64,000 bases of DNA from a virus. The stretch lies in the UHGV virus genome UHGV-0026213; one strand, 5' to 3'. Position 1 is the first letter of the stretch. The number at the start of each line of letters is the position of its first letter. The notes beneath the pieces were generated by a model. It ran no database searches. It worked only from the letters and a program-made list of their open reading frames with translations, and was not told the origin of the DNA. Both the position numbers and the translations under genes were made by a program. This document shows positions 50,545 through 52,076 of this stretch, one piece after another.

Positions 50545-52076
50545 AACAGTATTTAGCGTTAATGCAAGACATTCTGGATAACGGTGTTGTCAAGAAAGAC
50601 CGCACAGGTGTAGGGACACTATCTGTATTTGGTCGTCAACTACGTTTTGACCTGAAAGAAGGTTTCCCATTAGTTACTACGAAGAAGGTTCACCTGAAAA
50701 GTATCATTCATGAACTGTTGTGGTTCTTAAACGGTGACACTAACGTGAAGTACCTGCAAGAGAACGGGGTAAAAATTTGGGATTCATGGAGGCGGCCATA
50801 CGTAGGTTTTACTGGTAAAGTCATTCGCATTCCACGATTGAAAAAAGAATACGTCCCTTTTAATGGAACTTTTCCTTTGGCCATTCCTAGTTTCGATTCA
50901 ATAGAAGATAAAAAATTGGCATACGCCTGGAAACGAATGATGCATCGCTGTTATGATAAAACAGCACATAACTACCGACATTATGGTGCAAAGGGTGTAA
51001 GCGTTGCTTTACGTTGGCACGACGTAACTAATTTTGTTAACGATGTTAAAAAACTGCAAAATTGGTTTTATAAAAGTAAGAACTGGAATGACTTCGAACT
51101 CGATAAAGATTATTACGGCTCCAATCAATATTGCCCCGACGGATGTGTATGGCTCAGTAGAGGAGAAAACGTCCATCATGCGTGGGTACGCATTATTAAA
51201 GGTGACGGAACACAATACATTTGCCGAACGTATAAACATGCATCCCAATTAACTGGTTTAAGCAAAACATCCATCCACAGATTCGTTAAGGAAGGCATTA
51301 CCCCACATCTTAAAGGAAATAACAGAATCAAAGGTGTAAAAAATTGGATTATGCAAAAAGCTACTACTGAAGACTACCTCTATCGCAACGAAATTAACGA
51401 CGACGGAGATTTAGGCCCAGTCTACGGTAAACAATGGCGAGATTGGGTAGGTCCAGACGGTCGCCACCACGACCAGATCAGCAAAGTTATCCAACAACTT
51501 CGTGAAGACCCTGACTCCCGCCGTATTATCGTTAGCGCCTGGAATGTAGGTGACCTGGACGATATGGCACTTAATCCATGCCACAACTATTTCCAATTCT
51601 ACACAACAGAAATGACGTTGCTTGAACGACTGGATTGGTACGAAGCAAATGAACCGGAAAAATTTGCGAACGCGCCACTTATTAATCACGAAGATATTGA
51701 TGATGAAGAACGACTTCATGAAACTTTAGATCGTGAAGGTATCCCTCGTCGTAAGCTTTCATGTTTTTACATGATGCGGAGCAACGATTACCTACTCGGC
51801 GCGCCATTTAACGTCGCTTCGTACGCGTTGTTAACTCACATGATTGCACAGCAGTTGAACATGGTTCCAGACGAGTTGGTTTATAGTGGTGTAGATGTTC
51901 ATCTTTACTCTAACCATCTGGAGCAGGCAAAACTACAACTTACTCGCGAACCTTACCCGCTACCTAAACTGGTTATCAAACGTAAACCTGATTCCATCTT
52001 CGATTACAAATACGAAGACTTCGAATTAGTTGGTTATCAATCGCACGACACAATTAAAGCTCCCATAGCTGTCTAA
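50541..52076 (+). CDS. thyA: Thymidylate synthase ThyA with two in-frame insertions (511 aa vs 264 aa for E. coli ThyA)
   Basis: MKQYLALMQDILDNG..DRTGVGT..IIHELLWFL..IWDSW / DLGPVYGKQWR..DSRRIIVSAWN..ALNPCHNYFQFY / KLSCFYMMRSNDYLLGAPFNVASY..VDVHLYSNH..IKAPIAV is colinear with E. coli ThyA. Confidence 0.9.
   Translation: MKQYLALMQDILDNGVVKKDRTGVGTLSVFGRQLRFDLKEGFPLVTTKKVHLKSIIHELLWFLNGDTNVKYLQENGVKIWDSWRRPYVGFTGKVIRIPRLKKEYVPFNGTFPLAIPSFDSIEDKKLAYAWKRMMHRCYDKTAHNYRHYGAKGVSVALRWHDVTNFVNDVKKLQNWFYKSKNWNDFELDKDYYGSNQYCPDGCVWLSRGENVHHAWVRIIKGDGTQYICRTYKHASQLTGLSKTSIHRFVKEGITPHLKGNNRIKGVKNWIMQKATTEDYLYRNEINDDGDLGPVYGKQWRDWVGPDGRHHDQISKVIQQLREDPDSRRIIVSAWNVGDLDDMALNPCHNYFQFYTTEMTLLERLDWYEANEPEKFANAPLINHEDIDDEERLHETLDREGIPRRKLSCFYMMRSNDYLLGAPFNVASYALLTHMIAQQLNMVPDELVYSGVDVHLYSNHLEQAKLQLTREPYPLPKLVIKRKPDSIFDYKYEDFELVGYQSHDTIKAPIAV
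50790..51407 (+). mobile_element. In-frame HNH/NUMOD-like homing-endonuclease-derived module inside thyA (codons 84-289)
   Basis: AWKRMMHRCYDKTAHNYRHYGAKGVSVALRWHDVTNFVNDV (W..M..RC...Y..YG..G..V...W..F..F motif), ELDKDYYGSNQYCPDGCVWLSRGENVHH (degenerate HNH-like segment) and YKHASQLTGLSKTSIHRFVKEG (NUMOD1-like HTH). By eye it is more AT-rich than the flanking thyA sequence. Confidence 0.55.

Follow-up and report, generated by a model that had tools for sequence, protein, structure and literature searches.

A homing-endonuclease-family domain carried in frame within the thymidylate synthase of a jumbo phage

Described homing systems and the thyA insertion

According to the common view, homing endonucleases persist in genes exclusively within self-splicing introns or inteins, or else occupy an intergenic position. 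Here, we describe an element in the UHGV virus genome UHGV-0026213 (analyzed as one stretch of 64,000 nt, hereafter the window) that probably follows a different route, as a complete gene of an I-HmuI-related homing endonuclease family appears to persist, unspliced, as an in-frame domain of a functional thymidylate synthase (ThyA) and to spread by homing-like gene conversion. The domain, designated insert A, is encoded by 50793..51395 (+) and comprises aa 85-285 of the thyA product, i.e., 201 codons in frame that correspond to a whole protein of this family. In the following, 'endonuclease' is a family label for insert A and denotes a predicted activity.

The closest precedent for such a lifestyle is the ShiLan domain of mycobacteriophage DNA methylases, an unspliced, read-through insertion of sporadic occurrence for which homing has been proposed (Arsenault, Gosselin and Gogarten 2025, PMC11855218). 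Like insert A, it is neither an intron nor an intein, lies in frame with its host gene and was proposed to be a looped-out extra that is kept in the protein (PMC11855218). In ShiLan, however, the HNH endonuclease is encoded outside the host frame, and what is read through in frame amounts to a hairpin without features (PMC11855218), whereas insert A has the endonuclease-family domain itself in the host frame. The alternative-frame open reading frames (ORFs) of insert A reach 72, 79 and 51 aa; no homologue search was made with them. The hosts differ as well, since ShiLan resides in a dispensable methylase of few actinophages (PMC11855218) and insert A in ThyA, in more than 100 clusters and several phage groups. 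An initial annotation of this DNA, made from its letters alone, had raised the idea of a little-described third lifestyle besides intron and intein. The literature that we searched, the coverage of which was incomplete and gives no proof of absence, does not describe endonuclease-family domains within the ThyA frame, but with ShiLan a near-precedent exists (PMC11855218).

Free-standing homing endonuclease genes (HEGs), such as the seg and mob genes of T4 or mobE, which splits nrdA in Aeromonas phage Aeh1, likewise do without a self-splicing vehicle. They spread by cleaving a neighboring or target gene with co-conversion of the flanks, and the family of insert A is also found free upstream of thyA; however, these HEGs sit between genes or split a gene into separate polypeptides, whereas insert A is part of a single polypeptide. 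Inteins with HNH or LAGLIDADG endonucleases share with it the co-translated, in-frame insertion into an essential enzyme at a conserved position, but they have a Hint domain and splicing junction residues, and insert A has neither. The T4 td group I intron with I-TevI resembles our case in its host gene, in the logic of targeting a conserved motif and in the type of the C-terminal helix-turn-helix (HTH) domain of I-TevI. The group I intron that occurs in thyA of sister genomes of the window breaks the ORF, is detected as RF00028 and lies at R413|S414, none of which applies to insert A.

With regard to the protein itself, the reference system is I-HmuI, the 174-aa endonuclease from the DNA polymerase intron of Bacillus phage SPO1 (PDB 1U3E; PF07463 + PF13392 + PF22083), compared with 201 aa for insert A. 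Both have the same C-terminal HTH and a C-terminal ...G(Y/W)xFxY.L strand, a conserved hairpin block of insert A probably takes the HNH position, and both families target conserved phage genes of nucleotide metabolism or replication. In the insert family, however, His75 of I-HmuI is replaced by Lys105, and Asn83 and Asn87 are replaced by Tyr and Thr/Gly, respectively. Moreover, the N-terminal NUMOD4 sheet gives way to a helical W..M..RCY module in insert A, and a self-splicing intron harbors the gene of I-HmuI, whereas insert A forms one continuous frame with its host protein.

In-frame state, fold and family of insert A

The window belongs to a jumbo phage akin to the Salmonella and Erwinia phages of the SPN3US-Asesino-Kwan group. 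Its thyA occupies 50541..52076 (+) and encodes 511 aa in one uninterrupted frame, the product of which matches PF00303 with E 3e-105 (Pfam) and the ThyA equivalog NF002499 with 413.6 bits against a cut-off of 405 (NCBIfam). In a phmmer comparison with E. coli (Ec) ThyA structures, the protein aligned in three blocks, namely residues 1-84 with Ec 1-84, 286-356 with Ec 85-155 and 404-511 with Ec 157-264; it therefore holds two insertions, A (aa 85-285) and B (aa 357-403). All ThyA catalytic residues (Cys146, Arg166, Ser167, Asp169, Asn177, His207, Tyr209 and Trp80/83 in E. coli numbering) are intact in the alignments. The first thyA part (50541..50792, +) ends in the folate-binding IWDSW motif directly before insert A, and the second part (51396..51608, +) holds the GPVYGKQWR motif and the catalytic Cys347. 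The initial annotation had set the insert to codons 84-289 (50790-51407) and had described residues 1-83 and 290-511 as colinear with E. coli ThyA. An in-frame insert is indeed present, with bounds refined to codons 85-285 (50793-51395), and the three peptides quoted from it are all found; colinearity holds for the N-terminal part, but residues 290-511 include the 47 aa of insert B.

At 38.5% GC, 201 stop-free codons have a chance probability of about (61/64)^201, roughly 7e-5 by our own arithmetic. Insert A furthermore matches PHROG families annotated as HNH homing endonuclease (E 4e-29 to 2e-12). Because of these stop-free odds, the best PHROG match and the in-frame state in 102/150 top-ranking homologue clusters, a frame arising by chance is excluded.

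No features of splicing were found in insert A. Over 50000-52600, Rfam gave no intron match, even at E<=10, and the 618-nt stretch folds worse than its own shuffles (z = +1.82 for the minimum free energy). Pfam gave no match to an intein or Hint family in insert A or in 34 relatives. The junctions in the window read W83|R85-P-Y and ...R-N-E-I285|N286-D-D, and inserts at the same site in other phages begin with R/K/A/V/I/Q..., end in ...E-I/L and are followed by N/D/H/A. Hence, neither the Cys or Ser at the N-junction nor the His-Asn plus Cys, Ser or Thr at the C-junction that mark an intein is present. As all 201 residues (603 nt) are taken up by the endonuclease-family fold, there is also no space for a Hint domain or a ribozyme core.

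The sister genomes provide an internal control against the intron reading. In the 90%-identity cluster of the window's ThyA, 5/11 members are 419 aa long, and the two of them that were read end in ...FYMMR and a few junk codons. One genome (L023) carries an ORF-less group I intron (RF00028, 64.8 bits, 4230-4462; Rfam) at R413|S414, corresponding to 51779|51780 of the window, and a more distant one (L014) has a group I intron in thyA as well (RF00028, 58.5 bits, 7221-7551). In the window, 51779|51780 is an empty group I intron site within the third thyA part (51750..52076, +; aa 404-511 and the stop codon). The intron of the sister genome thus breaks the ORF and is found by Rfam, and insert A does neither. 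A transposon or insertion sequence was rejected as a candidate, as there are no target-site duplications or terminal inverted repeats, but only short chance repeats, none of them at the junctions. Judged from the nucleotide and protein sequences, insert A is neither an intron nor an intein nor a transposon, in line with the initial annotation with respect to the first two.

When insert A was modeled by AlphaFold2 with a 50-sequence alignment, a single compact domain was obtained with a predicted local distance difference test (pLDDT) score of 94.9 and a predicted template modeling (pTM) score of 0.86, and I-HmuI was the best structural match to this model. The single-sequence AlphaFold2 run of the full 511-aa protein was unusable (pLDDT 33). 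Comparison of the family profile with a profile of 34 I-HmuI relatives by hhalign gave a probability of 96.2% (E 2e-9) and an alignment extending into the HNH motif; against the lone I-HmuI sequence, only the HTH was reached, so the 34-relative profile was needed for the HNH region. In the profile-profile alignment, W120=W90 and N126=N96 of I-HmuI are fixed directly, and D104=D74 and K105=H75 were assigned from equal spacing. PHROG, structure and hhalign thus agree with the initial proposal of a homing-endonuclease-like module followed by a NUMOD-type HTH, and they place the C-terminal HTH in the I-HmuI/NUMOD type. The AP2-like similarity suggested alongside it was not borne out, since PF00847 matched neither insert A nor 34 family members at E<=1 (Pfam).

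Insert A starts with a strand and linker (residues 1-36, 50793..50900, +; R..V.V.P...Y.PY.G.FS, strand at residues 10-14) that is found in free-standing family members too. It is followed by the helical module W46..M49..R52-C53-Y54...Y64..G68..V71...W75 (residues 37-96, 50901..51080, +), for which no covering Pfam or NCBIfam family was found and whose W46/R52/C53/Y54/W75 show the same invariance in free-standing copies and in those embedded in ThyA. The top-conserved block ELDKDYYGSNQYCPDGCVWLSRGEN (residues 100-127, 51090..51173, +) corresponds to the strongest block of the family, LDKDYYGxNxYSPxTCxWLxxxEN, and probably forms a derived HNH-like beta-hairpin core. Residues 130-190 (51180..51362, +) make up a beta-beta-alpha-alpha-beta HTH DNA-binding domain of the NUMOD-like type seen at the C-terminus of I-HmuI and I-TevI, and the last strand, ..YLYRNEI (residues 191-201, 51363..51395, +), is the counterpart of the I-HmuI C-terminus GYTFRYKL. 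Pfam, NCBIfam and PADLOC contain no family model for residues 1-127. From the first strand to the last, insert A aligns with free-standing proteins of approximately 200 aa and hence represents the entire family protein, with nothing left over at either end. No paralogue of insert A was found elsewhere within the window.

The HNH pattern named in the initial annotation is non-canonical. The general-base His75 is invariant across the 34 I-HmuI relatives, and in the insert family its position is occupied by Lys105 in 28/29 site-1, 59/59 site-2 and 31/31 aligned free-standing sequences (the two sites are defined below). The metal-ligand position N126 (N or Q) and D104, which precedes K105, are conserved, and the D104-K105-D106...N126 block is equally invariant in ThyA-embedded and free-standing copies. 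Although the C-terminal NUMOD-like HTH of I-HmuI-type HNH enzymes is present, their defining general-base histidine is not, and insert A was therefore not filed as a canonical HNH enzyme.

To follow the family, 1.84 billion cluster representatives (50% identity) were searched exhaustively with phmmer, which gave 7425 matches at E<=1e-3 and 358 at E<=1e-10; the counts of embedded and free copies and of sites rest on the best 150 of these matches. A single-sequence word-index protein search gave one match only, so that the exhaustive search and a profile query were required, and a megablast of thyA against phage records gave no match. In 102/150 clusters, the module is flanked by ThyA sequence, on one side or on both. 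Insertions occur at two sites: site 1, between Ec 84 and 86 as in the window, in at least 28 clusters, and site 2, between approximately Ec 105 and 108, in about 59. The site-2 inserts are longer by an extra N-terminal domain of about 100 aa, which is beta-rich (G..F.VI...qF..TG...vr...G..D.y.P.v.GVG..G, e.g., in P0051, P0067 and P0071, and also in Bacillus phage Kioshi, L003, 1826-3472) and which matches no Pfam family and lacks an obvious catalytic motif. This domain also occurs in the free-standing P0096, P0120, P0123 and P0145. By nearest neighbors, site-1 inserts group together and site-2 inserts group together, with the free-standing forms interspersed. The hosts of the insert include two strongly dissimilar types of ThyA, from four phage groups that are not related to each other. 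Among sequenced phages, Tenacibaculum PTm1 and PTm5, Enterococcus A2 and 163, and Bacillus Kioshi carry the site-1 form, each in one coding sequence (CDS); in the case of PTm1, the same protein is labeled 'thymidylate synthase...' in one record and 'HNH endonuclease' in the other.

Free-standing relatives have about 180-240 aa. A 214-aa family ORF lies between the DNA polymerase pieces of Staphylococcus phage Romulus (L009, 95-4549), and one of 232 aa lies between ribonucleotide reductase fragments of Lactococcus phage AM1. As Rfam found no group I intron around either of them, the term 'intron-encoded' for these ORFs refers to their position between gene fragments. The DNA polymerase gene of Romulus is in pieces and has a separate annotated putative intein besides the family ORF. 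In a marine phage contig, a member occurs as an ordinary separate ORF, and in P0152 (368 aa, Logan contig), the full module precedes an RNase_T/DEDD exonuclease domain (PF00929) as an N-terminal fusion. Further family ORFs were located 2 nt upstream of a complete thyA (L018, ORF 3001-3600, thyA 3602-4504) and two genes upstream of thyX (Thy1; L019, ORF 3001-3723), and the family thus seems to be tied to thymidylate synthesis genes in several configurations.

The initial annotation had considered it possible that the loop at site 1 tolerates an insertion. Erwinia phage Kwan (L006, 1501-2619) carries an unrelated insertion of about 60 aa (RDETRSVPCVYTVEER...) exactly at this site, so the loop tolerates other sequences as well, and the small-domain insertion of L. 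casei ThyA lies near it. In the ThyAs of L005 (SPN3US), L008 (Asesino), L016 (PEF1), L025-L028 and P0002, a variable loop of about 35-45 aa is present at site 2, after GPVYGxQWRxW; it coincides with the insertion point of the second endonuclease-family clade and is either a remnant or a permissive site. In Erwinia phage RisingSun (L007, 1501-3726), and also in Joad, a GIY-YIG homing endonuclease gene interrupts thyA and leaves two CDSs, and in RisingSun no intron was found in thyA at the Rfam gathering threshold. Mobile elements of several kinds share thyA as a hotspot in this phage group.

Filled and empty alleles and selection on the insert

A search for an empty site in related phages, as suggested by the initial annotation, was successful in two groups. 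In IMG/VR, four jumbo-phage contigs (L025-L028) encode a ThyA that is identical to that of the window over residues 1-77 but lacks insert A. Around the empty site, L027 (IMGVR_UViG_3300029126_000001) reads ...GTA AAA ATC TGG AAC GAA TGG AGT GAT GAA GAG GGG AAC TTA GGG CCA.... At the DNA level, the window and L027 are identical at 59-60/60 positions per block up to nt 50776, show no relatedness over 50777-51467 and are again identical from 51468 on, with a sole mismatch before 51779 at 51470 and unbroken identity over 51471-51778. The imported mosaic segment (50777..51467, +) thus consists of insert A, 16 nt of thyA upstream and 72 nt of thyA downstream. Mismatches resume exactly at 51779, i.e., at the intron site, which marks a second mosaic boundary in thyA. 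The counterpart of the segment in L027 has 189 nt (63 codons), no insert A and the site-2 loop of about 35 aa known from SPN3US and Asesino, whereas the downstream tract of the window, WRDWVGPDGRH, matches the insert-bearing P0153 instead of the clade-typical loop. Because the replaced tract fits the P0153 allele, the simplest reading of the alignment is that the window gained its insert by gene conversion from a P0153-like donor. The ThyA of P0153 shares 83% identity with the insert-free protein of Kwan and 75% with that of the window.

In the Enterococcus phages of the genus Schiekvirus, the insert is present in A2 and 163 and missing from about 30 relatives with 95-97% identical flanks. From A2 to PEF1, identity is 97-100% up to the IWDxW junction, the insert is non-homologous, about 210 nt follow at 70-90% identity, and the sequences then agree at 100%. 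Kioshi differs from its Caeruleovirus relatives by replacement of the whole thyA gene. Presence and absence of the insert at one precise site in near-identical genomes, together with co-converted flanks (16 nt upstream and 72 nt downstream in the window, a graded downstream tract of about 210 nt in A2), are two of the marks of a homing element. Along with the family-wide in-frame conservation, these alleles support the initial proposal that an endonuclease resides in ThyA in the form of a protein insertion. No correlation was seen between the identities of inserts and those of their backbones (r 0.15, n 20; r 0.08, n 48), in comparisons that cover deep divergences only and have low power.

In the comparison of the window with L014 (insert 81% identical), the proportion of nonsynonymous differences (pN) was 0.105 for the insert at a synonymous proportion (pS) of 0.76, which is saturated. 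The flanking ThyA parts reached pN values of 0.246 and 0.136 and are therefore under looser constraint than the insert. By these substitution patterns, insert A is under strong purifying selection, as a functional domain and not a decaying passenger. Within the 90%-identity cluster, the insert is identical in the 4/11 members that were read, including proteins of 511 and 419 aa, and is open in 11/11 as judged by length, whereas the intron is polymorphic.

The other insertion of the gene, insert B (51609..51749, +; aa 357-403, 47 aa between Ec 155 and 157), is common to the ThyAs of SPN3US, Kwan, Asesino, PTm1 and P0002 and not present in those of E. coli or P0155. With 28-39% identity to relatives it is weakly conserved; it is a lineage feature that is unrelated to insert A and lies outside the mobile element. 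The start codon of thyA and the stop codon of the ORF before it (50224..50544) share nucleotides (ATGA, window 50541-50544), an arrangement that suggests translational coupling in an operon of small genes. A promoter and terminator scan gave nothing above shuffles.

Explanations for insert A and their implications

We consider it probable that insert A is a complete I-HmuI-related homing-endonuclease-family gene that lives as an unspliced, in-frame domain of a functional ThyA and spreads by homing-like conversion. According to this explanation, the element would have settled in a tolerant surface loop of ThyA right behind the folate-binding IWDxW motif, would not be removed at the RNA or protein level and would be translated as an extra folded domain. 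Co-translation with ThyA would make an own promoter, ribosome-binding site and splicing machinery unneeded, and the fusion would be produced early, while co-infecting genomes replicate. The fused module may recognize the uninterrupted thyA around the IWDEW/GDLGPVYG codons, and the fusion protein would bind, nick or cut this empty site and thereby start conversion, upon which repair would copy the element in and drag short thyA flanks of the donor along. ThyA activity would presumably be retained in the fusion. ThyA is an obligate dimer, and, speculatively, the dimer could pair two modules and turn a nickase into a double-strand cutter. A frameshift, a nonsense mutation or an imprecise deletion would destroy ThyA, and this, along with ongoing transfer or a role of its own, would keep the insert intact.

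A more far-reaching version of this explanation is advanced tentatively. It describes a widespread third HEG lifestyle, in which an active fusion with Lys in place of His, perhaps with dimer-paired nicking, homes into empty alleles at two thyA sites and acts as an 'addictive' selfish element, because the host could lose the insert by precise in-frame deletion alone.

Several points weigh against a homing fusion. Lys stands in for the canonical HNH His in about 148/150 family sequences, the two structural HNH Asn are replaced, and the predicted model shows no helix behind the hairpin; for these three reasons, the module could be a pseudo-nuclease, with another nuclease starting recombination. 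Synonymous sites are saturated relative to the nearest insert-bearing relatives, so a recent transfer is not datable there. Fixation of the insert and its constraint beyond that of ThyA fit a domesticated role as well as a selfish one. Finally, retention of the insert in the mature protein is a prediction.

Of the other explanations, domestication survives best, although we regard it as unlikely. Here, the nuclease would have been lost, the DNA-binding domain would serve ThyA or the phage, for example by tethering dTMP synthesis to replicating DNA, by regulating thyA or by interfering with competitors, and the patchy occurrence would result from ordinary recombination of alleles. The Lys in place of the catalytic His and the replaced structural Asn would suit such a protein, as would the very strong purifying selection, the fixation across the window's 90% cluster in the presence of a polymorphic intron in the same gene, and the lack of matches to Pfam, NCBIfam or PADLOC nuclease models. 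However, the D-K-D...N residues are equally invariant in free-standing members, including the ORFs within split DNA polymerase and ribonucleotide reductase genes, and these free-standing members are without another candidate catalytic domain. In addition, two unrelated phage groups have their breakpoints close to the insert, as expected of nuclease-initiated conversion, and two sites with their own clades plus free copies adjoining thyA are typical of site-specific mobile elements.

Far less likely is an ancient, fixed feature of a ThyA subfamily that was inherited vertically, lost many times and never mobile. Among the nearest relatives of the window, insert identity does roughly track ThyA identity, and the insert clades are site-specific. 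Against this stand the very different ThyA types and unrelated phage groups that host the insert, as well as the filled and empty alleles in otherwise about 100% identical genomes, the foreign flanks of which indicate replacement and not clean deletion. Insert-bearing backbones are not mutual closest relatives either, and backbone and insert do not correlate. The initial annotation had named a fixed, non-mobile part of a ThyA subfamily as grounds for giving up its interpretation, and the insert turned out to be widespread but patchy.

Least probable of all is cryptic splicing, in which the 603 nt would be removed as an unusual in-frame intron, a non-canonical intein or a protease-excised segment: introns classically target thyA, the gene contains a group I intron in sister genomes, and Rfam, which found none around the Romulus and AM1 ORFs, can miss divergent introns, but the empty Rfam result and the positive z-score of the RNA fold, a domain homologous end to end with free-standing proteins over all 603 nt, a frame that stays open across the two junctions in over 100 divergent clusters and junction residues unfit for protein splicing speak against it.

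If insert A is, as we favor, an unspliced homing-endonuclease-family domain of ThyA, it is borne by an essential enzyme as an additional domain on a large scale, namely in 102/150 best clusters, at two sites and in unrelated phage groups. For annotation, this means that one and the same sequence is named either 'thymidylate synthase' or 'HNH endonuclease'. In terms of theory, an in-frame element in a needed gene would be shielded from the decay phase of the usual homing cycle, and with regard to enzymology, the HNH-like core with Lys in place of His would represent either new chemistry or a pseudo-nuclease. From an engineering perspective, the site behind IWDxW naturally accepts a 200-residue DNA-binding domain in ThyA. 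Since filled and empty alleles occur in otherwise identical jumbo-phage genomes, the question is directly testable.

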